Shown: positions 663 through 47,946 of the stretch, piece by piece
Layout of the letters: every line of letters starts with the position of its first letter
How positions within the stretch are numbered: position 1 is the first letter of the stretch
Virus record (IMG/VR): IMGVR_UViG_3300014697_000001
Location: 32,001-96,000 of that record
DNA: 64,000 bases
Direction: 5' to 3' (one strand)
DNA from: a virus
Lineage: Duplodnaviria; Caudoviricetes
Notes under the pieces: model-generated
Told to the model about the DNA's origin: nothing
Seen by the model: the letters and a program-made list of their open reading frames with translations, nothing else
Databases searched by the model: none
Made by a program: the position numbers and the translations under genes

Positions 663-855
663 AAACACCGTAGCTGACGATCTGGTGGAACACGCCCGGA
701 AGTGTCTAATACCGTTGAACAACAACTGGTCGCGCAAACGCAAGAACGCGCACCGCCGTACCCAATGTAGGATAGTGTCGATTGCCACGACGATCTCGGA
801 CATGCTGGTTGACGAGGTCCTCAAGCCACAGGAGATGGAACATGTTGAACAGTGA
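604..855 (+). CDS. small hypothetical protein (start probably 643)
   Basis: Fills the gap between 662 and thyA with overlapping ends. Confidence 0.45.
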
Positions 856-2632
856 CCCGCGTCTAGTCGGAGTGCCCCAAGCCAAGATCGACCCCATTGT
901 AGAGGCTCTGTACGCTGAATGGGAACCTGCTTGCCAAGGTGAGGCAGTTCTTCAAGTGGTCCATAGTGTCTCCAGAAAGCTTCTCGAACAATGGAGGGGT
1001 TCTTACATCCGGCCTGGCGATATCGAGCTGTTCAATTACAGTATCCGCCAAGAGGTCGACGCGTGGATTGCAGAGAAGCACATAAAAGGCTTTACCGAGC
1101 TTAAAGCCGAAGACTTCTACTGGACAGTCACTCAGTCAGGTGACAGCTTTAACATCCAACCAACAGAAGCCCTCAGGCAACTGGATAAGGGTGTGTATCC
1201 GGTCAAGTTCTTCAGACCGAGTACTCAGACCCTTGCGGGTATGGTGGCAGAAGAGCTTGAAAAGATCACTCAGAAAAAGAAGGAACAACTTAAGATGAAC
1301 CACCAAGTAACTGATGAGCAACAGTACCTCGACCTACTGGAATCTATTGTGGACACCGGCCATTATAAGGGCGATCGTACTGGTACTGGAACCTATTCCA
1401 AGTTTGGTCAGCTCATGCGGTTTGATCTGACCGATAACAAGCTACCTTTACTGACCACCAAGCAGATGTATCACAAGAGTTTTTGCCATGAGACCCTGTG
1501 GTTCATCTCGGGCAGTACTGATGTCAAGTACCTGAAGGATCATGGAATCTCCATCTGGGACAGCTGGGTCAATCCCAAGACTGCGGTCTATACCGATAAG
1601 GAATATGATCGACTCGATGCCGATATCCGCAAGAAGATGGCCTGGGGCGGTGAGTCCATTCAGTTTGAAGTCTTTGATGTCAATGATCCCTCGTATTCGG
1701 CATTTGCCATGTCCTCTGCAAGTTACCACGTGGATCTGGGTTTTGCAAACCCCGTGGTTTTCTTCGACCCAGCTGTCTGGACAGTCTTTTCAGAAGAGGA
1801 GACGGCGTATCACGCGGTTATTCTTAAGGCAATGCAGTGGCTCGCGACTCAATGTGACATCAATACCAAAAGGCTCGTTTCGGGCTCCATCGGTCCAGGA
1901 GCCTACGGGGCCATGTGGCGTAACATCGAAGACATCCGCTCCATCGCACATGACGAGTTGGACGAACACCTAGATAAAGGGTTCCGTCTAAAAGGTGAGT
2001 TGGAAGGTGAATTGATCGTCACGCGTAAAATCGATCAACTCCAGAGCGCGATCAACCTACTGCGCACCAATCCTGACAGTCGGCGGATCATCGTCCACGC
2101 GTTCGATAACCGGATGGTGGACTTCTGTGAACTCCCACCGTGTCATTCGTTCTTCCAATTCCTCACCCGTGAGCTTCGACTGCACGAGCGAGCGAAGTGG
2201 TTCGAAAACAACGTTACATCGAAGACACAAGTGGGGTCGGGTAATGGTCCTGCTGGTGACGATCTCCACGCGTTCTACGATAAACACGGTGTCCCGCGTC
2301 GGGCATTGACTTGCCTACTGTATCAGCGTTCGATGGACGCGCCAGTGGGCGCGCCGTTCAACTTCTCCCAGTACTCACTCCTGACACACATGGTGGCGCA
2401 GGTCACTGGGATGGTGGCTGAAGAATTCGTTCACTTCGCAGGCGATGCTCACGTGTACGCCGACCAGGTGGATCTGGTTGAAGAGCAGATCAAACGTCCG
2501 ATTATCGAACAGACTGCTCGTCTGGTATTGAATCCTGAGGTCAAGGAGATCGATGGTTTCACCTTTGATGACATCTCGATCGTTGGCTACGATAACCATC
2601 ATCCTGCGATCAAGTACCCTGTCGCAGTGTGA
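842..2632 (+). CDS. thyA: thymidylate synthase with N-terminal extension and insertions
   Basis: Motifs [27 protein letters not shown] (catalytic Cys), YQRSMD...PFN and GDAHVY. GGAG SD precedes ATG 842; a possible internal start lies at 1295. Confidence 0.95.
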
Positions 2633-13875: not shown

Positions 13876-14120
13876 TCTCGTTAATTATTCCTCCTCTATC
13901 CAATTCTCTGAATAAATTCAAAAGACTATAAAGAGCGAAGCTGGAGGAGTGGAACGAGGGAAGCTGAGCACAAGCGGAGGAGCTAAAGGCGACGACATCC
14001 CTAGTGCTTTTTGAGAGGCGAAGCCTCTCTATAGGGTAAAATAATCCTGACCAAACCAATCTTATATCTGACAATTACCAGAGAGGGTCATCCTCTCTTT
14101 TATGCCGTCACTCTAAAATT

Positions 14121-23974: not shown

Positions 23975-24820
23975 TTAAGCTTGAGCGAACGGGTCGACCG
24001 GATCACTGAAGTGGATGATAAGATCCCCACTGATTCCGAATGCATCGTTGTGGTCAAGACCCACAATCAGTCCGTAATCGTAGTTGTCGTTGAACAGACC
24101 GTTCTCTGCAGTAGGACCTGCAAACTTGATGATTGCACCCCCCAGACTGAACTGACTGTAACCGGTATGGGCCCAAGTGTCGCCCGTGATGTCGGTCAGG
24201 ATCGTCGCCAGCTCTACCGGGATGGCCTGACCTGCGACCAGGGTCTTCAGATAAGCGGCGTGCTCGGAAAAATCACGCCAGTAGCTGTAGAACTGCGCAA
24301 AGGGCAGGGTGGCGTACTGAGTCGGGTATTGGAACCCAGGTAGCGCCGTGTTGACCAGGTAGTTCTCCAGTGGGATGTCACCCTGTTTGACAGAAACATC
24401 CACTGTCCCGATCCAGCCCAGACTGGTTTCCTCAGCCGTCAATGTGACGGTCTTATAGGTCACCATGTCCACCGCATCTACCAGCACGATATCGGTCGGC
24501 TCGAGGTTCAGACCGAAACGCTCATTGATGTATGGCAGGATATCGTGAGAGTTGCTGAACTCAGGTGCCTGAATGCTCAGCGTTACAAGCTTTGGAAGGT
24601 CAGCCAGGCTCAACCGGTTATAGAAGATCTGTACCGAACCCTGATAAGGGGCGACGTTGTTGTTGGCGGTGACGGTGACGTAGGTGTTTTGCCCTGGATT
24701 GGTTCCGGTGTCGTTGACCGTCGGATTCTCAAAGTCATAATCTTCAGGACTCAGCTGAATCCCGTTGTTTTGGGCAATCACACCCAGCAGGGTTGTTACT
24801 GGGTCCTTATAAAGAGACAT
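23975..24820 (-). CDS. virion structural protein (YxRLxL family)
   Basis: QNT...YQGSVQIFYNRLSL. Confidence 0.85.
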   Translation of the reverse strand: MSLYKDPVTTLLGVIAQNNGIQLSPEDYDFENPTVNDTGTNPGQNTYVTVTANNNVAPYQGSVQIFYNRLSLADLPKLVTLSIQAPEFSNSHDILPYINERFGLNLEPTDIVLVDAVDMVTYKTVTLTAEETSLGWIGTVDVSVKQGDIPLENYLVNTALPGFQYPTQYATLPFAQFYSYWRDFSEHAAYLKTLVAGQAIPVELATILTDITGDTWAHTGYSQFSLGGAIIKFAGPTAENGLFNDNYDYGLIVGLDHNDAFGISGDLIIHFSDPVDPFAQA

Positions 24821-24834
24821 GAGTAAAACTCCGA

Positions 24835-25674
24835 TTAGATGTTGTAATGAAAGTACGCGGTACCAGAAAAGCCGTTACTTCGAATGCCAGTCTGTACAGC
24901 AACGTGCGAGAAGTTACGGTTAGCATCTGGTAGAGACTTGGTCTCGTAGACCTTGACCGAATCGGTGGAGGTCGACGATGCGTCAATGGCTGGCCAGTCG
25001 GCAATGTTGTACAGCTCTTGCAGTTTGGCTCGAAGCCCAGCATGGTCTGTCCAGTTTCCACGGTAATAGGCCCCGTTAGGACTGACTCTTAACTGAGGGC
25101 GAATAAGGGTAAAGTCCAACCCCCACGTGGTCAACCCAGCGCTCCGGTACCCGTCCAACACTGGATCTGGATGGGTAAGCTTGGCCACTGCACGCGTATG
25201 GATGACATCTGTTAACATCAACTGCCTGCGATTGAACAGGACTGTGGTGTATCCTTTATAGGCAATCGAACCCGGTTTTGCTTCCAGTTCAATCAGAACC
25301 TGCTCACCGGTACCGAGAAGCTTGAGGTCAATGTTGACCAGATCGTCTTCAGTCAGGGTGATGCCCAAGGCTTTACTGATTTCAGGCAACAGCCTGTGCA
25401 GAGATGACTGTCCTAGGGCACTGAACTCGGCGCGGTAATTGCCACCAAACAGGACGCCCAGATCAAGGCGGTTGTAGTAAACTTTGACCTGCCCCTTGTA
25501 ATCTTCGCCAGCCACACCTCGAACATTCAACTGAGTGTTGGCATTACCGAATCCCAGTAGATCACTTGGTTTGCCCAAAATGAGGTTAGTGGGCGTGAAT
25601 TCGATTTCAGGGGTGTTGGTCTGGTTGAGGAGATCCCTCAATTGCTGTTCGGGACGTTGTTGATATTGCTGCAT
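24835..25674 (-). CDS. virion structural protein (YxRLxL family)
   Basis: ANT...YKGQVKVYYNRLDL; ends FHYNI. Confidence 0.85.
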   Translation of the reverse strand: MQQYQQRPEQQLRDLLNQTNTPEIEFTPTNLILGKPSDLLGFGNANTQLNVRGVAGEDYKGQVKVYYNRLDLGVLFGGNYRAEFSALGQSSLHRLLPEISKALGITLTEDDLVNIDLKLLGTGEQVLIELEAKPGSIAYKGYTTVLFNRRQLMLTDVIHTRAVAKLTHPDPVLDGYRSAGLTTWGLDFTLIRPQLRVSPNGAYYRGNWTDHAGLRAKLQELYNIADWPAIDASSTSTDSVKVYETKSLPDANRNFSHVAVQTGIRSNGFSGTAYFHYNI

Positions 25675-25744
25675 GATAGACTCACCTTAAGAGGAAGCTA
25701 TAACCGCTGGGAAAGGAAGACCTAACCCAGCGGTAAGCAGATGC

Positions 25745-26254
25745 TTACATCGTCAGGGTCAGACCATCCAGTACAGGCTTGGTGACGGCAACTGCCAGAT
25801 CCACGTCAGCGGCCTGGATGCTGAGAACGACTTGACCACGGTAGGCATAGGAGCCAGCAGCAGCGATCATGGTCCACTGCTGAGGGGTGCTGGTCAGCTC
25901 CGCCGGCATGGTCAGGTCGTTACGGATGTCATCCAGTTGCAGGTTGGAGCCGTAGAAGGCATTGAAACCATTCAGGATGTTCTGAAGGGTGATGTCGCCT
26001 TCGACCTGGATGGCCGATGGGACAGCGTCTTCGAACGCCTGAAGTGGAATACGGTTGTACAACAGGGTGGTGGTACCCTTGTACCCCTTACCGGGGATAC
26101 CTTCGATTACCAGTTCGGTATCGCGTTCTGGTGCCTCACCCGGAGCAGCAGTCGGCACACCGAAGGAAACACTGTCGAATGTGAGGTTGAGTAGGTTTTC
26201 ATCATTGATCAGGGCCAGGACCTGATCTTTTGCGAGCATCGATACGTTATACAT
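25745..26254 (-). CDS. virion structural protein (YxRLxL family, N-domain only)
   Basis: RDT...YKGTTTLLYNRIPL...SYAYRG. Confidence 0.85.
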   Translation of the reverse strand: MYNVSMLAKDQVLALINDENLLNLTFDSVSFGVPTAAPGEAPERDTELVIEGIPGKGYKGTTTLLYNRIPLQAFEDAVPSAIQVEGDITLQNILNGFNAFYGSNLQLDDIRNDLTMPAELTSTPQQWTMIAAAGSYAYRGQVVLSIQAADVDLAVAVTKPVLDGLTLTM

Positions 26255-26365
26255 GTCAAGGTACCTGATGGGGAAGGATTGGTGGACGGTCCAACGAGAC
26301 TCAGTAAAAAGCTTCGTATAGTTAACCGGTCACACATCATTTGACCCCACAGTCGCGTATTTTCA

Positions 26366-26405
26366 CAATTCAAAAGAATTATAGCCCTACATTGTAGAGG
26401 TGATG
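26366..26405 (+). promoter_or_regulatory. putative early promoter
   Basis: CAATTC-N16-TACATTGTAGAGGTGA. Confidence 0.65.
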
Positions 26406-26582
26406 AACACAGCAATTTCAATCCCATTATATGTACAGGTACTTTCGAGTACACGTAAGGGGGTGATCCAGCCTAGTTCCTTCCCGGATCAGTGAGCCTT
26501 GTCGGGAGACATTGCATCTGTTCCAACGGCGCCTGTGCATCAGACCACATCGAAGGGCAATTCCCTCGATGTGGTCTTTTAT
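26402..26582 (+). ncRNA. candidate structured RNA with 18-nt complement of the 16S rRNA 3' end (contains a 30-codon ORF, 26403-26495)
   Basis: Lies between a promoter motif and a terminator. TAAGGGGGTGATCCAGCC at 26456-26473; UUCG hairpin at 26439-26452; closing helix 26431-26439/26532-26540. Confidence 0.6.
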
Positions 26583-26588
26583 GCCGCC
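26542..26588 (+). terminator. intrinsic terminator
   Basis: AGACCACATCGAAGGG-CAATT-CCCTCGATGTGGTCT-TTT then ATGCCG. Confidence 0.8.
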
Positions 26589-26626
26589 TGCCAATCATTT
26601 GACCATTGCCTCAAGGAGGTAACACC

Positions 26627-27010
26627 ATGCGTAATGTTGGTATCAACTTGATCCTGGCTGACTCGATGTCAGCTGTGGATGCCATCGCCGTAGAACTTGA
26701 TATTGAGGAAGTCTACCCGGTAGAGGAGCTTATCCAGACCTACCGTACCAGTCCTCATGCCACCTATTTCGCCCTGGGTGATTCGGTTCCAGAGCTGGAG
26801 CAACTGGCTACCTATTTTACTGTCCGACGTGGAGTCATTCGGGTAGACGGGAAGGATAAATTTCTCGGCTCCAATGTCGACTGGATGACTAAACTGCTGG
26901 TCAAGACTTCTAAAACAGCCGCGGCCGGGAAAGTTCAGACCATCCGAAGCTTCACAGTCCCTGAAGAGAAAGACGACCCGTTCGAAGAATTGGGATATGC
27001 CCGACGTTAA
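26627..27010 (+). CDS. hypothetical protein
   Basis: AAGGAGGT SD; followed by a terminator at 27014-27065. Confidence 0.8.
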   Translation: MRNVGINLILADSMSAVDAIAVELDIEEVYPVEELIQTYRTSPHATYFALGDSVPELEQLATYFTVRRGVIRVDGKDKFLGSNVDWMTKLLVKTSKTAAAGKVQTIRSFTVPEEKDDPFEELGYARR

Positions 27011-40289: not shown

Positions 40290-40371
40290 CCAAACGGGAG
40301 AGCTTCGGCTCTCCCCTTATGCCGGCTCGACGGTACCATTGTATGTCTTTATCTATCGGTGAGATTTCATT

Positions 40372-40887
40372 ATGTGGACAAGACTTATAGCAGCAGTTGG
40401 TTTGAAAGGTATACTGGTCGGTCTTCTGGTAGCGGGGGTTGCCTCCACGTTCATCTACTGGGTGAACTGGACCGTTGAGGCCAATCGGACCCTGGTAAGC
40501 AATGCAGAGACCATCAAACAACACGAAGAGACCATCAACACCCTTCGTGGCGAGATACAGCAGTACCTCCAGGAAAACCACCAGCTAGAGGAGAAGTTCT
40601 ATCAGATAGAACAATCTCAGAGTGACCTTCTCTGCGCAGCCCGTTACGGTCAACCCGTCCAGGACAGTACGGTGCAGTTACCTCTGGTCAAAGAAGTTGT
40701 GGTCTACCGGGACCGGATGAGCAAATGCCCTACGCTTGACATCAATCAGGCTGAAGTGACGGACTCACTGGGCACTGCACTACGACCGTCAAATGAGCAG
40801 ATCGCTGTAAAGGTTCTTGAGAACTCTTGGGAGGCATTCTGCATCGCCAATAAACAGGAGCATCCCTCATGCTTACCTACCCAATAA
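40372..40887 (+). CDS. i-spanin (Rz-like)
   Basis: N-terminal TM helix, coiled coil and Cys residues; overlaps the lipoprotein gene. Confidence 0.7.
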   Translation: MWTRLIAAVGLKGILVGLLVAGVASTFIYWVNWTVEANRTLVSNAETIKQHEETINTLRGEIQQYLQENHQLEEKFYQIEQSQSDLLCAARYGQPVQDSTVQLPLVKEVVVYRDRMSKCPTLDINQAEVTDSLGTALRPSNEQIAVKVLENSWEAFCIANKQEHPSCLPTQ

Positions 40888-44004: not shown

Positions 44005-47000
44005 TTACTTGATTGAACGATCAATCCATTTGATGATGGCTTTAGCTGTGGGGTAGACTTCGATCATTTCGGTGAGGCTGAGCGTCCACATCTCAGGCTC
44101 GCGTTGGTGATAAAAGCGCTCCCAGTAGGCTTCATCGAGTTTCCGATCGGTGACGTACAGCCAGTCATTGAACTCGTTACCATCCTTGAAATCGAGCCAA
44201 GGGATAAATCCAATGGATGGGTCCCATTTCTTATCAGTTAGCATTGCTTTGACAAGCTGAGCTGCTTCTAACACCTGCGTGGCATTTAGTGCAGGGAGTG
44301 TTTCAGCAGCTACTAACTCCGGGACAGTTCGAACAACAGGCGTACCTTTAACAACCTCTACCTTAAGGTTCTTCAGAGACGTTCCTTCGAACTTCGGAAA
44401 GCGCTTCATGGGATCGGGGAGAGCGTCGAACTCGTTAACTGATTTTCGAACGAAATCCAGAATAGACTCGGTGTCTCCGGCGCTCTTCTCCCAGTGCTTC
44501 ACAGTGCGGTTGTGAATTTCCTGGACCTTGTCGTTCAATGGCCCAAGCACACCCATCCATGCCTTGGTGTGACGAGCGACTCTACCGTGAGCCTTTATCA
44601 CATTGCCCAGTGGACTGTCCCCTAACTTACCATCCAACATGAAGTACGTCGAAATATCCTTCGCAGGCACATCCCCTTCAACATATTTCTGCTTGTCAAG
44701 CCAGGTTCGACTCAGATAGGTTTTGTTCATCTCCTCCATGAACCGCTTGAGTTTATTAGCATGTTCGTATCTGAGGTATTCGCTATCGTCGTCCTTGTAC
44801 TTGGGTTTCTTGGGTCTAAGCAAGCCACCTAAGAGATCGGACAACCCTTCAAACGACACGGTGTCCTCGCCACCATCCCTTACGTCGATTGGCAGTTCGA
44901 GTTTCACCCTGTCGATAAATCGCTCAGCATCGCCCAGGGTAGCCGCTGGATTCTCCACCAAAGACTCCAGCGATGCCTCTAGATCATCCGGAGCACTGAC
45001 CCCGAGGATAGCCTCGACTTGAGATTTACTCCATGCCATGATGTCCTTAGAGCGCGTCGAGATGTTCGGCTCTGCACCGGTATCCAGATACGTCTCCCAG
45101 ACATGGCAGCGATGCTTCTGTCCGATTCGGTCAACACGGGCAATGGTCTGCGTCCGTTCGTAATCACGGAACGGGGCATTGGTGAACACAACTGTGTTTG
45201 CCATGGTCAACGGTACAGCTGTCGACAGGGACTTGAAGGTTGCCACCAGAGGATTGATGTCGTCGTCATTCTCAAACCGCTTGACGATGTTCGGCAAGTC
45301 CTTGTTGGTCTCCCCGTACACCAGCAGGGGTTTATACCCCGCCTTCGTCAGCAGGCTCTCAAGCTCCTTGACCACTTCCACGTAACTGGTAAAGATCACC
45401 GTTTTGGTGGTCGCGTTGTCGATGATCTCATCCAAGGGCATGTTGGGTAGCATGTCCAGGTGACACTGGATGCGCAGACGCCCCAATACCTGAGACAACG
45501 CCTCACCCATGACCCTGAGGTCAACGTACTTGATGATGGCACGGACATTCAAGAACGGTTTGCGGTACCGTTCAGGTAGCGAGGGAACAATGGTCTTCAG
45601 CTCGTACCGGTTACAGTACATCACCAGATCCTTCATGGTAACCGGATCATACCCCTTGCGAAGTTGAGCCACGCCACGTCGGTATTCAGAGAACGCTGCG
45701 GAGGCCATTCCGCCCTTTACAGTCTGCCCGTGAAGCTCCATGCAAGTCGCGTAGAGTTTTTCATACTCCGGCATCCCCTTTCGGTAGAAGGCCAAACGCT
45801 CATCGATAAACTTGCTCATCTTCTCGCGGACACTGGTCAGGGTATATTCCGATGAGTTGTTCATCGGTACCTTGATCTCATGGTAATCCACACCCGGAGT
45901 CTCGATGTCAGCTTTCACCACTTTGAAGGAGACAATACCGATTCGGTTAGCCAAGATCTCAATCGCCCGCTTAGCCTCCTTGCCAAATATCTTACGGAAG
46001 GACCCTTGTACTTCAGGAGTGAAGTCATTACAGATCGTCGCCAGCAGGGTGATGGCTTCAGAACCCATGGCCTTGAACGGCGTACCCGATGCATGGATCA
46101 CATCTCGGGCCTTGAGGGTCTGGCAGAGCTGGATCAGCAGGTTGGTCCGGTTGGACTGCTCGTTGAAGTTGTGCGATTCGTCGATCCCTACATAGACCTT
46201 GCCGAAGCTGCCTTTGTTAGCCCCGACGAAGGCCAAGAACTTCTCCAGATAATCGTAATGGACGATGTAGTACTTCTTGCCCAGAGTCAATTCCTCTCCA
46301 CTCAGGCTGTGCCAGTACTCTGGCGTCTGCTTGAAGAGTACCTTGATGGTTTTGACCCAGACGTCAAACACAGAGTTCTTCGGCACAACGAGCACTGAGG
46401 TGTCAGCCCCTAAGCAATGGGCCGTGGCGTATTGCGAGATCGTGTTATGGGTGACAATGAAGTCATCGGTGATGTACAGGTGTTTCGGATGATCCACCCT
46501 GATACATTGCGCCTCTTCCTGACCGACGAGCTTGATTGACTTAACACGTAGTTTGAGCGTTGCAGCATACTGTCCATCGTCTTTACAACGTTCCTGTTTG
46601 CGTTTTAACCTGAACAGTTCGGATGGTTTGGAGTGACGAATGTTGACTTGATATGCAGGGCGGCCATTTCGCGTCTCGCCGTTGTAAGTATAAGTCGGTT
46701 TCCGAACAGCGATCCTGGCGATACCACCCAGACTGCGAACCAGATACTGCACACCTTCCGCCAATTGCTTACTACTGGAGCAAAATGAGACGGTCCCTTG
46801 CTGATCCGAAGTTCCATCGGTGTCCATGAGGCCTTGAAGAAGACTCAGGCGTTGTGTCCGGGAACCCTGGAGATACTCACTAGGAATATGTTTTTCGTGA
46901 GAATACTTACCAAATAATCCAAGTTCTCTAACTATCCGTCTCAGTACATTGTCGCCGCGCTCAACACCCACAATGCTGTAGTCGATTTCAGTTATACGTT

Positions 47001-47946
47001 TGAATTCCACGGTGTCTGGTAAGGCATTACGGACATTCTCCAGTACCTCGGCATCTGGAGTACAAAAGGCAACATGGTATCGAAGACCACCGTCGCCCAA
47101 TAACGCACCCAGCACATACGGGTCAAGTGGGTATTGTACCTCTGTACCTTCATCTGGAGTGATGAGAGGAACGTACAGTCGATTCCCACCGCGAGATTCT
47201 AAAATCTCTTTCATGCGCAACGTCGATCGGACATCCCACTGGCGGGAAACATTACTCTGCCTTCCGTCGTGACATTCCCAGAGATGCTCACCACACGCCC
47301 TGGTTTTCCGCCCATCGACGAACTCAATTTCATAGATGTCTTTTACACCTTGAGGATAAACACCCGACACATTGACGGTCGTACCGTCCGGCGCAATCAC
47401 CTGACTCCCCACGCGCATGTCACCCATAGTGGCCCAACCACCAGGTACCTTGATTTTAGCGTCAAGAGGCTGAGCCTTACCCGATCCTGCTGCCGCGTCC
47501 ATCAACATTCCATTGAGCGAGTATTCAAACGTAGCTCGGTCGTAATGCTGTAAAAAGTTAATTTGATGGGGAAATAATGTGACTGTCAAGTCCTTCAGTG
47601 CCGACATGTTAAGCCTGGAGGTGAAATCACCCAGACCTATGTTGCGCAGCCACGTGCCAGCAATCAACTCATCGCGTACACGCTGTAGCGTCCGCCGACC
47701 CACATACGTCCGACGGGATTGGATCAGTTGATCCAACATGTACAGAACTTCGATGGCGTAGAACTTGGGAAACTTTACGCCACTTCGCGAAATAGCAGTG
47801 AACATGTTGTTGTTCAACTTGCTAGTTTTCCAGTGATTGTATACGTCTTTAGAGAACCTGAGCCCAGGTATTCCATTGACTATAATGTGAGAGCCGGTCT
47901 CCTTCACGGAGATCAACCCTAACAGACGCGAGAAATTGGCGTACAT
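44005..47946 (-). CDS. SF2 helicase with intein and C-terminal head-protein-like extension
   Basis: Walker A AAGSGK/T split by the intein; DESH, ASGTP and QTIARVDRIGQ. Confidence 0.9.
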   Translation of the reverse strand: MYANFSRLLGLISVKETGSHIIVNGIPGLRFSKDVYNHWKTSKLNNNMFTAISRSGVKFPKFYAIEVLYMLDQLIQSRRTYVGRRTLQRVRDELIAGTWLRNIGLGDFTSRLNMSALKDLTVTLFPHQINFLQHYDRATFEYSLNGMLMDAAAGSGKAQPLDAKIKVPGGWATMGDMRVGSQVIAPDGTTVNVSGVYPQGVKDIYEIEFVDGRKTRACGEHLWECHDGRQSNVSRQWDVRSTLRMKEILESRGGNRLYVPLITPDEGTEVQYPLDPYVLGALLGDGGLRYHVAFCTPDAEVLENVRNALPDTVEFKRITEIDYSIVGVERGDNVLRRIVRELGLFGKYSHEKHIPSEYLQGSRTQRLSLLQGLMDTDGTSDQQGTVSFCSSSKQLAEGVQYLVRSLGGIARIAVRKPTYTYNGETRNGRPAYQVNIRHSKPSELFRLKRKQERCKDDGQYAATLKLRVKSIKLVGQEEAQCIRVDHPKHLYITDDFIVTHNTISQYATAHCLGADTSVLVVPKNSVFDVWVKTIKVLFKQTPEYWHSLSGEELTLGKKYYIVHYDYLEKFLAFVGANKGSFGKVYVGIDESHNFNEQSNRTNLLIQLCQTLKARDVIHASGTPFKAMGSEAITLLATICNDFTPEVQGSFRKIFGKEAKRAIEILANRIGIVSFKVVKADIETPGVDYHEIKVPMNNSSEYTLTSVREKMSKFIDERLAFYRKGMPEYEKLYATCMELHGQTVKGGMASAAFSEYRRGVAQLRKGYDPVTMKDLVMYCNRYELKTIVPSLPERYRKPFLNVRAIIKYVDLRVMGEALSQVLGRLRIQCHLDMLPNMPLDEIIDNATTKTVIFTSYVEVVKELESLLTKAGYKPLLVYGETNKDLPNIVKRFENDDDINPLVATFKSLSTAVPLTMANTVVFTNAPFRDYERTQTIARVDRIGQKHRCHVWETYLDTGAEPNISTRSKDIMAWSKSQVEAILGVSAPDDLEASLESLVENPAATLGDAERFIDRVKLELPIDVRDGGEDTVSFEGLSDLLGGLLRPKKPKYKDDDSEYLRYEHANKLKRFMEEMNKTYLSRTWLDKQKYVEGDVPAKDISTYFMLDGKLGDSPLGNVIKAHGRVARHTKAWMGVLGPLNDKVQEIHNRTVKHWEKSAGDTESILDFVRKSVNEFDALPDPMKRFPKFEGTSLKNLKVEVVKGTPVVRTVPELVAAETLPALNATQVLEAAQLVKAMLTDKKWDPSIGFIPWLDFKDGNEFNDWLYVTDRKLDEAYWERFYHQREPEMWTLSLTEMIEVYPTAKAIIKWIDRSIK
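46444..47475 (-). mobile_element. class 3 intein (344 aa) with LAGLIDADG homing endonuclease
   Basis: Begins AQPLDAKI and ends VTHN/T; W (EHLW), C (AQCI) and T (VTHN) triad; LGALLGDG and LQGLMDTDG motifs. Confidence 0.92.

Follow-up and report, generated by a model that had tools for sequence, protein, structure and literature searches.

The window analysed here is the whole 64,000-nucleotide (nt) stretch of DNA shown above, which derives from a jumbo phage record of IMG/VR (IMGVR_UViG_3300014697_000001, 250.5 kb in full) with an RNA polymerase beta fragment scoring above the Pfam cut-off, as in phiKZ-like phages. A predicted small RNA of about 150 nt is housed in the intergenic region 26255-26626, which is flanked by a virion-protein gene on the minus strand (25745-26254; PHROG virion structural protein) and, on the plus strand, by a gene of no assigned function that starts at 26627 behind AAGGAGGU. 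This RNA carries a strand complementary to the 3' end of 16S ribosomal RNA (rRNA). Our comparative analysis points, with a probability that we put at about one half, to a stand-alone, start-less small RNA that Pseudomonas jumbo phages encode and that acts in trans by docking on the 30S subunit of the host ribosome. The features of the locus are given below, where P1 to P4 are helices and N1 to N18 are the positions of the complementary strand.

26378-26401, plus strand: conserved upstream block ATTATAGCC followed by the small hairpin CCCUACAUUGUAGAGG, common to the relatives L135, L060, L053 and L204
26424-26433, plus strand: promoter-like CCATTATATG, with TATG at 26430-26433 and G26433 as the predicted first base of the RNA
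26433-26582, plus strand: predicted small RNA of about 150 nt, made up of the core matched by the covariance model and the terminator directly after it
26433-26439, plus strand: 5' strand of P1, GUACAGG, with its partner at 26532-26538 (helix 1; 98% paired, four of seven pairs compensatory)
26440-26451, plus strand: P2 hairpin UACU-UUCG-AGUA (helix 2; 97% paired, three of four pairs compensatory; CAGU/ACUG in relatives)
26456-26473, plus strand: complement of the 16S rRNA 3' tail (N1-N18), of which the core 26458-26471 is invariant but for one G/A position
26483-26485, plus strand: CCC on the 5' side of P3, which may pair with the G-run of the complement (P2a; 83.5% of cells pair)
26486-26492, plus strand: 5' strand of P3, GGAUCAG, with its partner at 26518-26524 (helix 3; 88% paired, five of six pairs compensatory)
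26496-26515, plus strand: P3a (GC 26496-26497 with GC 26514-26515) around the P4 hairpin (26500-26511), which has a GGGA loop of the GNRA type
26518-26524, plus strand: 3' strand of P3, CUGUUCC (helix 3 covariation)
26525-26531, plus strand: junction AACGGCG between P3 and P1, of which ACGG[C/U]G is nearly invariant in the family
26532-26538, plus strand: 3' strand of P1, CCUGUGC (helix 1 covariation)
26543-26582, plus strand: intrinsic terminator, a stem-loop of 15 pairs (26543-26576) followed by UUUUAU, with a predicted fold of -24.5 kcal/mol
26579-26586, plus strand: tail TTATGCCG with TATG inside, common to the terminators of this phage

The complement TAAGGGGGTGATCCAGCC at 26456-26473 (plus strand) occurs once in the complete phage record of 250.5 kb and is absent from the opposite strand, and the record holds no site complementary to this tail-pairing motif. 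The earlier note on this DNA had claimed here an 18-nt antisense to the 16S 3' end, and the claim stands: against GGCUGGAUCACCUCCUUA all 18 positions are paired, one of them as G-U. By our own arithmetic, chance would give an 18-mer with at most one mismatch about 1e-4 times in the 128 kb of both strands. As had been stated before, the motif in the window has no start codon behind it at Shine-Dalgarno (SD) distance, and nothing translation-related was found among the neighbouring proteins of the locus.

The target was traced in the host family. In a Stutzerimonas (Pseudomonadaceae) genome, the complement of the motif, GGCTGGATCACCTCCTTA, forms the last 18 nt of the 16S gene, and the Rfam match of the small-subunit rRNA ends exactly there. 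The alignment to a host 16S 3' end, which the earlier note had proposed, thus identifies the 18-mer as the true 3' end in a Pseudomonadaceae genome. No other site within two mismatches occurs in the 4.2 Mb of that genome, and the exact 18-mer was present in 44 of 61 sampled Pseudomonadaceae genomes, with rRNA-like copy numbers. Positions 1530-1542 of 16S rRNA are free, and positions 1525-1529 form the base of helix 45.

The RNA belongs to a family with at least 23 distinct members, one copy per genome and, among the matches listed, confined to Pseudomonas jumbo phages and their uncultured relatives. A blastn search retrieved one relative, Pseudomonas phage pPa_SNUABM_DT01 (DT01 below). Further members came from pattern scans of IMG/VR, GenBank phages and metagenomes, in which the matches of the loose scans were mostly due to chance and the members were sorted out by additional features. 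The named carriers are phiKZ, PhiPA3, PA1C, 201phi2-1, Viktualia and DT01, and every named host is a Pseudomonas. Type A comprises the window phage, DT01 and uncultured contigs of 250-277 kb, and type B comprises phiKZ and its close kin, PhiPA3, the PA1C-like phages, 201phi2-1, Viktualia and uncultured relatives. The genome of the window phage holds no second copy (the next covariance-model match has E = 0.5). None of the Rfam 15 covariance models reached its gathering score in the window, and within 26300-26650 the lowest E-values were 0.7-9, from unrelated families. In bacterial genomes (596 Gb) the pattern matched 26 times, with about 17 matches expected by chance (our arithmetic), and none of them fits the model. 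Among searchable papers we found none that matches PHIKZ204, none that ties phiKZ RNAs to the anti-SD sequence and none that names this RNA.

Comparison of the members revealed the complement as the fixed part of the family. AGG[G/A]GGUGAUCCAG is kept in all 23 members, and helices, flanks and terminator stems vary around it; a scan anchored on P1 and the 3' junction alone recovered 13 members with the motif in 13/13. The earlier note had held that its proposal would fall if the motif were not conserved at the nucleotide level, and the motif is kept in 23 diverged relatives. The number of contiguous pairs with the 16S tail is 17-21 in 23/23 members, reaching up to 21 bp in phiKZ and exceeding in each case the length of at least 16 nt that characterizes the bacterial rre-type RNAs discussed below.

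Every substitution within the pairing run of the 23 members preserves pairing. N2 is A or G opposite U; N6, likewise opposite U, is G in 22 members and A in the metagenomic member L320; N17-N18 are C or U opposite G, and an A at N18 closes the run in some members. Taken alone, these substitutions are weak evidence, since they are few and all of them are transitions. The stronger point, as read from the alignment, is that conservation sets in just where the rRNA ends: the run opens opposite the terminal A1542 in 20 of the 23 members and one base inward in the other three, the three bases 5' of it vary by lineage, and its 3' boundary lies at N17-N21. By this comparison, the motif varies as would a strand whose pairing partner is external, fixed and ends at that position. 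The predicted duplex amounts to -34 to -42 kcal/mol, compared with -12 kcal/mol for the consensus 8-nt SD AAGGAGGU, and the predicted cost of freeing the motif from the RNA's own fold is 5-11 kcal/mol. In the predicted ensembles the motif is mostly open in its GAUCCAG half and mostly paired in its G-run.

Several lineages show particularities in this strand. The sole member with a canonical GGAGG in the motif (UGAGGAGGUGAUCCAGCC) was found on the minus strand of metagenome contig JACYYJ010079711.1 (L320:1808-1917), where a CCUUCC stretch 5' of P3 could still mask the motif. In 201phi2-1 and Viktualia (L003 and L249), past a mismatch at N19, five more bases (N20-N24) pair with 16S positions 1519-1523. 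A1519 is dimethylated in mature 16S rRNA, and the extension over it hints that immature rRNA could be the partner in these phages. Capture of an antisense fragment of ribosomal DNA was considered as the origin of the strand and rejected: only the window lineage faintly resembles, by eye, the helix-45 loop region (AGUUCC versus GGAAC), and the resemblance is not conserved.

The secondary structure was drawn from seven type-A sequences, the remaining ones were aligned by two Infernal rounds, and 23 sequences were evaluated. Standard pairs occupy 93.7% of the cells, compared with 22-41% when the partners are slid by 1-3 columns; an alignment fitted to a model flatters pairing, and the type-B and L135-group sequences played no part in deriving the structure. 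Compensatory changes on both sides were seen in 17 of 23 pairs and cover all five helices, so that the covariation check across relatives suggested in the earlier note supports a folded RNA. P3a and P4 (helices 4 and 5) are 91-94% paired with five of six pairs compensatory, and the loop reads GGGA, GCGA, GAGA or GUGA among the relatives. The covariance-model match to the window spans 26431-26540 (101-107 bits). The order of elements is P1, P2, a long joining strand that bears the motif, the irregular P3-P3a-P4 arm with its GNRA cap, ACGGCG, the return strand of P1 and the terminator; in type B an additional hairpin stands 5' of the terminator. The closing helix and the UUCG hairpin announced earlier are both present, at 26433-26439 with 26532-26538 and at 26440-26451, respectively. 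P2a (GGGU/ACCC) is beyond the covariation test because its motif side never varies, and a slide by one column still pairs 75% of its cells. No pairing partner was found for the ACGG[C/U]G junction strand. Judged by these comparisons, the RNA is a real family with covariation support, uncatalogued and lacking in Rfam.

Only the plus strand is compatible with the G-U pair of P1 and the U-run. A minus-strand reading, in which the transcript would mimic the 16S tail, was discarded, as the U-run follows the hairpin only on the plus strand in every lineage and the U-G of P1 would become A-C. A switch between mutually exclusive pairings was likewise rejected. Of the two pairings proposed for it in the earlier note, UGAUCC/GGAUCA has its central pairs broken in 10-18 of 20 relatives, and UUCCCGG/UCGGGAG performs no better than shuffled columns, its CGGGAG being the GNRA loop of P4. 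These two pairings, which could have served as an anti-terminator, are thus not conserved; no exhaustive search for others was made.

The RNA also has the outline of a transcription unit of its own. TATG stands directly 5' of P1 in all type-A members, and the late-promoter consensus of phiKZ, used by the non-virion polymerase of the phage, is TATG with G as +1 (PMC4666361). Both marks of a phiKZ-type transcription unit, TATG with a start G and an RNA polymerase beta fragment in the same genome, are found here, the use of the promoter being predicted. A twin decamer, CCATTGTATG, lies at 40336-40345, 27 nt upstream of an ordinary gene at 40372. In type B, TATAG is found 5' of the RNA, and about 22 nt further upstream there is a match to AAanTTACc, equally spaced in phiKZ, PhiPA3 and PA1C; AAanTTACc is the middle-promoter motif (PMC4666361), and its match in type B is our own reading. 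At the other end, the strong terminator described earlier is present (stem 26543-26576, then UUUUAU), and every relative has a terminator at this place with a stem sequence that differs in every lineage. In phiKZ the terminator is UUUAUGCC, and the RNA predicted there has about 180 nt and spans about 212,870-213,050 on the plus strand. For the window we predict a stand-alone transcript of about 150 nt that begins at G26433, ends at about 26582 and is synthesised in the middle or late phase of infection, not early. The earlier note had called the RNA early and placed its start near 26402. Neither is supported, as P1 of all type-A members has a late-type TATG exactly at its 5' end. The sigma-70-like site at 26341-26369 occurs at chance level (two found, 1.8 expected).

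The tail of the terminator recurs in the window. UUAUGCCG, or (U)UUAUGCC(G), directly follows GC-rich tetraloop hairpins at 14100, 15063 (minus strand), 15763, 33652 and 40317. At the junction 40290-40372, a stop codon is followed by the hairpin GGGAGAGC-UUCG-GCUCUCCC, the tail CUUAUGCCGG and then CCATTGTATG, 27 nt before an ATG. Since the tail holds TATG, the core of the phiKZ late promoter, transcription may start afresh at these terminators for the gene that follows, including the one at 26627. Upstream of the RNA, the CCCUACAUUGUAGAGG hairpin (26386-26401) lies 30-45 nt 5' of it, with a stem that is compensated and longer in L053 and L204, and ATTATAGCC resembles TGATATAGCC, which abuts the RNA in PhiPA3. 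This block (26378-26401) could provide an alternative start, belong to a longer transcript that begins further 5' or serve as an operator of divergent promoters.

The genomic surroundings of the RNA differ among its carriers. In phiKZ-type phages it adjoins the gene of a virion-associated SNF2/DEAD helicase (L247, phiKZ gp203), which is transcribed divergently. The homologous helicase of the window (1313 aa; 44005-47946, minus strand) is encoded 17 kb away, so that the RNA has moved relative to the helicase gene. The stretch 23975-26254 (minus strand), which reaches up to the intergenic region, encodes three tandem virion-protein paralogues, of which two match DUF7941 along their entire length and the third resembles virion structural proteins of PHROG; YNR(L/I) is found in all three. 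Elsewhere in the window, an open reading frame (ORF) of 616 aa at 782-2632 (plus strand) matches thymidylate synthase over residues 159-616, compared with about 300 positions of the profile; it therefore carries an N-terminal extension and probably a large insertion, perhaps an intein or a homing element.

GenBank records place short hypothetical coding sequences (CDSs) over the RNA in DT01 (PA10_00263, minus strand; L001:3034-3156), Viktualia (CDS0006; L249:598-687) and PhiPA3 (gene 232). They differ in strand and position among the records, the locus is unannotated in phiKZ and 201phi2-1, and these CDSs are probably artefacts. Nor does the leaderless 30-codon ORF at 26403-26495, in which the earlier note had placed the motif, survive comparison, since no frame is shared with the relatives, which differ by indels of 1-2 nt. 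GTG and TTG ORFs at 26492 and 26499 were tried and are not conserved.

Several other explanations of the locus have to be weighed. The motif might, similar to rreB, provide the ribosome-binding site for an ORF that is very small or non-canonical, given that rre genes join a similar site with an ORF of 14-18 codons (PMC5711450) and that small hypothetical CDSs have been annotated at this locus. However, no AUG, GUG or UUG is conserved within 20 nt 3' of the motif in the 23 members, the position of the rreB GUG is taken by GCC, GUC, GCA or GCU, indels shift every frame among the relatives, and the annotated CDSs disagree with one another, all of which leaves this explanation hardly credible. The RNA could also form the 5' part of the downstream mRNA and act in cis. 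It would then either hold a 30S subunit close to the 5' end, protecting the message or loading ribosomes in the manner of STAB-SD or standby sites, or be an attenuator in which the binding of ribosomes or of a ligand sets the read-through of the terminator. A conserved junction closed by P1 with an intrinsic terminator directly after it is indeed riboswitch-like. Many type-A phages have a gene of the same orientation whose start lies 40-50 nt past the terminator, and several of these genes begin with MRN like the one at 26627, so that a contribution in cis is possible where a homologous MRN gene stands close behind. Nevertheless, a co-oriented gene dependent on read-through is not always found downstream. 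The gene after the RNA is convergent in PA1C, and TATATTAC, which we take to be the phiKZ early-promoter consensus, lies between the terminator and the next gene in phiKZ (before gp204) and in L150. Furthermore, the genes found behind the RNA in the window and in DT01 bear no relation to each other, the alternative pairings proposed for a switch are not conserved, and the TATG of the terminator tail could itself start the downstream message. Two transcriptome studies report that phiKZ-type phages yield many short RNAs derived from 5' untranslated regions (5'UTRs) by premature termination (PMC10914365, PMC11512511), which would suit an action in cis; on balance we regard such an action as unlikely. 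The earlier note had left the choice between a trans-acting RNA and a leader controlling the gene at 26627. From that pair, the structured non-coding RNA with its own terminator and with the 16S tail as comparative partner is retained, and the leader is given up as a general role in view of the convergent gene of PA1C and of the early-promoter-like sequence behind the terminator in phiKZ.

The match to 16S rRNA might, alternatively, be a by-product, the stretch being kept because the tertiary fold of the RNA, or a protein or other ligand from phage or host, requires it, without any contact to the ribosome. Long invariant junction strands are typical of RNAs that bind ligands or proteins; the G-run is able to pair internally with the conserved CCC; the ACGGCG junction strand is likewise invariant and bears no relation to 16S rRNA; and 22 of the 23 members have GGGGG and not GGAGG. 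What such an origin leaves unexplained is that conservation starts exactly at the 16S end, that the pairing run spans the whole invariant block and that the substitutions in it are neutral to pairing, and a chance match of 17 nt to the 16S tail is expected at about 1e-4 per genome (our arithmetic). We consider it rather unlikely. It is less probable still that the RNA targets 16S rRNA as such, by blocking late maturation factors of the 30S subunit, by shielding the rRNA end from exonucleases or defence nucleases, or by making a cleavable duplex. The pairing does reach the exact 3' terminus and helix 45, beyond the need of any mRNA, and extends to 21 bp in phiKZ, but an effect on the assembly of new ribosomes would be of little apparent use within one lytic cycle, and we rate this explanation as improbable.

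Given that the RNA holds, in an invariant and open stretch, the exact pairing counterpart to the final 17-21 bases of 16S rRNA, it would most likely dock, untranslated, on the small subunit. The favoured course of events for such a docking RNA can be outlined as follows. The phage's own RNA polymerase would transcribe the RNA from the TATG-type promoter and stop at the standard terminator of the phage, and the transcript would adopt the junction of P1, P2 and P3-P3a-P4 that covariation shows. The 17-21 nt between P2 and P3 would then pair with the free 16S tail, that is the anti-SD sequence, and with the base of helix 45. The GAUCCAG half, predicted to be open, could nucleate this pairing, and the G-run is probably held by the short CCC until displaced. 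As no start codon follows, a bound subunit could not go on to initiation, and the RNA would thus occupy the docking site of mRNAs. Most likely, the RNA would then either compete with SD-led mRNAs for 30S subunits that are free or newly made, or be sheltered or carried by the subunit. That a dedicated start-less RNA of the phiKZ group, seated on the anti-SD tail, redirects or throttles translation initiation during infection is a possibility which we put forward tentatively.

A number of observations weigh against docking and its supposed effect. No match to the model was obtained in nine jumbo phages of Serratia, Xanthomonas, Erwinia, Vibrio, Klebsiella, Edwardsiella and Aeromonas under strict filters that weak homologues may escape; one motif-like match among them resembles an ordinary strong SD. 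All known hosts share one 16S tail, which leaves no co-variation with the target to be read. Five of the paired 16S bases fall in helix 45 and would need melting. The G opposite U1537 forms a wobble in 22 of the 23 members, which is not what selection for maximal affinity would favour, and the invariant G-run could be kept for the internal GGG/CCC pairing or for a protein. Since the phage genes use strong SD sites (AAGGAGGU before 26627), a strong block would harm the phage as well. Finally, over-expression of rreB left growth unslowed (PMC5711450), as ribosomes far outnumber the RNA, and this argues against a simple sponge.

Should the docking hold, the RNA would be a concrete candidate for the means by which phiKZ-like phages gain preference for their own mRNAs on the ribosomes of the host. 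In Grad-seq of phiKZ infection, mRNAs of the phage were enriched on 30S and 70S particles and those of the host were displaced (PMC8545117); the only phage factor so far tied to the ribosome in phiKZ-like phages is a protein (PMC10914614). The hypothesis is testable at once, because gradients, long-read transcriptomes and phage genetics exist for phiKZ. If true, it would describe what is, as far as we found, apparently the first natural virus-encoded RNA built on a full-length complement of the 16S 3' tail and a start-less counterpart to the bacterial rre RNAs. The analysis also adds a covariation-backed family that Rfam lacks and corrects small hypothetical ORFs in GenBank phage records.

Among known systems, synthetic oligonucleotides and peptide nucleic acids complementary to the 16S 3' end, studied from the 1970s to the 1990s, block initiation by occupying the anti-SD tail. 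They are artificial, and the phage RNA would be their natural, virus-encoded counterpart. The STAB-SD elements of Bacillus, said to have been described by Agaisse and Lereclus in 1996, are 5' mRNA stabilisers in which a start-less SD-like site near the 5' end reportedly holds a 30S subunit. They differ in being short sites in the leader of a long mRNA that act in cis, whereas the phage site belongs to a terminated, structured small RNA with sometimes no gene behind it: the motif lies 23 nt from the predicted 5' end, a strong terminator precedes any gene, and some members have no downstream gene.

SprF1 of Staphylococcus aureus, which is prophage-borne, is a ribosome-binding small RNA that attenuates initiation (Pinel-Marie et al. 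2021, as summarised in PMC8158120). As far as that summary goes, it is alike in being a small non-coding RNA with a purine-rich contact to the ribosome, and unlike in being a type I antisense antitoxin with a short purine-rich 5' end, without a tail complement of 17-21 nt and without relation in sequence or structure. In the phages themselves, the transcriptomes of phiKZ and 201phi2-1 contain 5'UTR-derived and intergenic short RNAs of a similar terminated style (PMC8545117, PMC10914365, PMC11512511). Those described in the main texts lie elsewhere (5'UTR of p40, 3'UTR of PHIKZ298, upstream of gp182 and gp277, PHIKZ221 and PHIKZ302), and these texts make no mention of the present RNA or of 16S complementarity; it may be among the 17 phiKZ or 11 201phi2-1 short-RNA candidates of the supplementary tables.

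The closest comparison is with rreB and rreR, small mRNAs of alpha-proteobacteria (Hahn et al. 2017, RNA Biol 14:1353; PMC5711450). The rreB RNA has 165 nt and a tail complement of 17 nt, it co-sediments with 30S subunits in gradients, and its long pairing suppresses its own translation (PMC5711450). Like these RNAs, the phage RNA is short, ends at its own terminator, and carries a long complement to the tail (perfect over 16-17 nt in the rre RNAs) which lies partly in a hairpin and leaves an open seed. The rre RNAs differ in being bacterial, with a GUG at the 3' edge of the site and a conserved ORF of 14-18 codons, whereas the phage RNA has neither start nor ORF. It differs further in its multi-helix fold (the rre fold being taken as described in PMC5711450), in a G in place of A at the centre of the SD and in its restriction to phages. 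As the defining rre feature, a start codon with a small ORF, is missing, the RNA is not filed as an rre gene; at the step of binding to the small subunit, by analogy, it plausibly works like an rre RNA.

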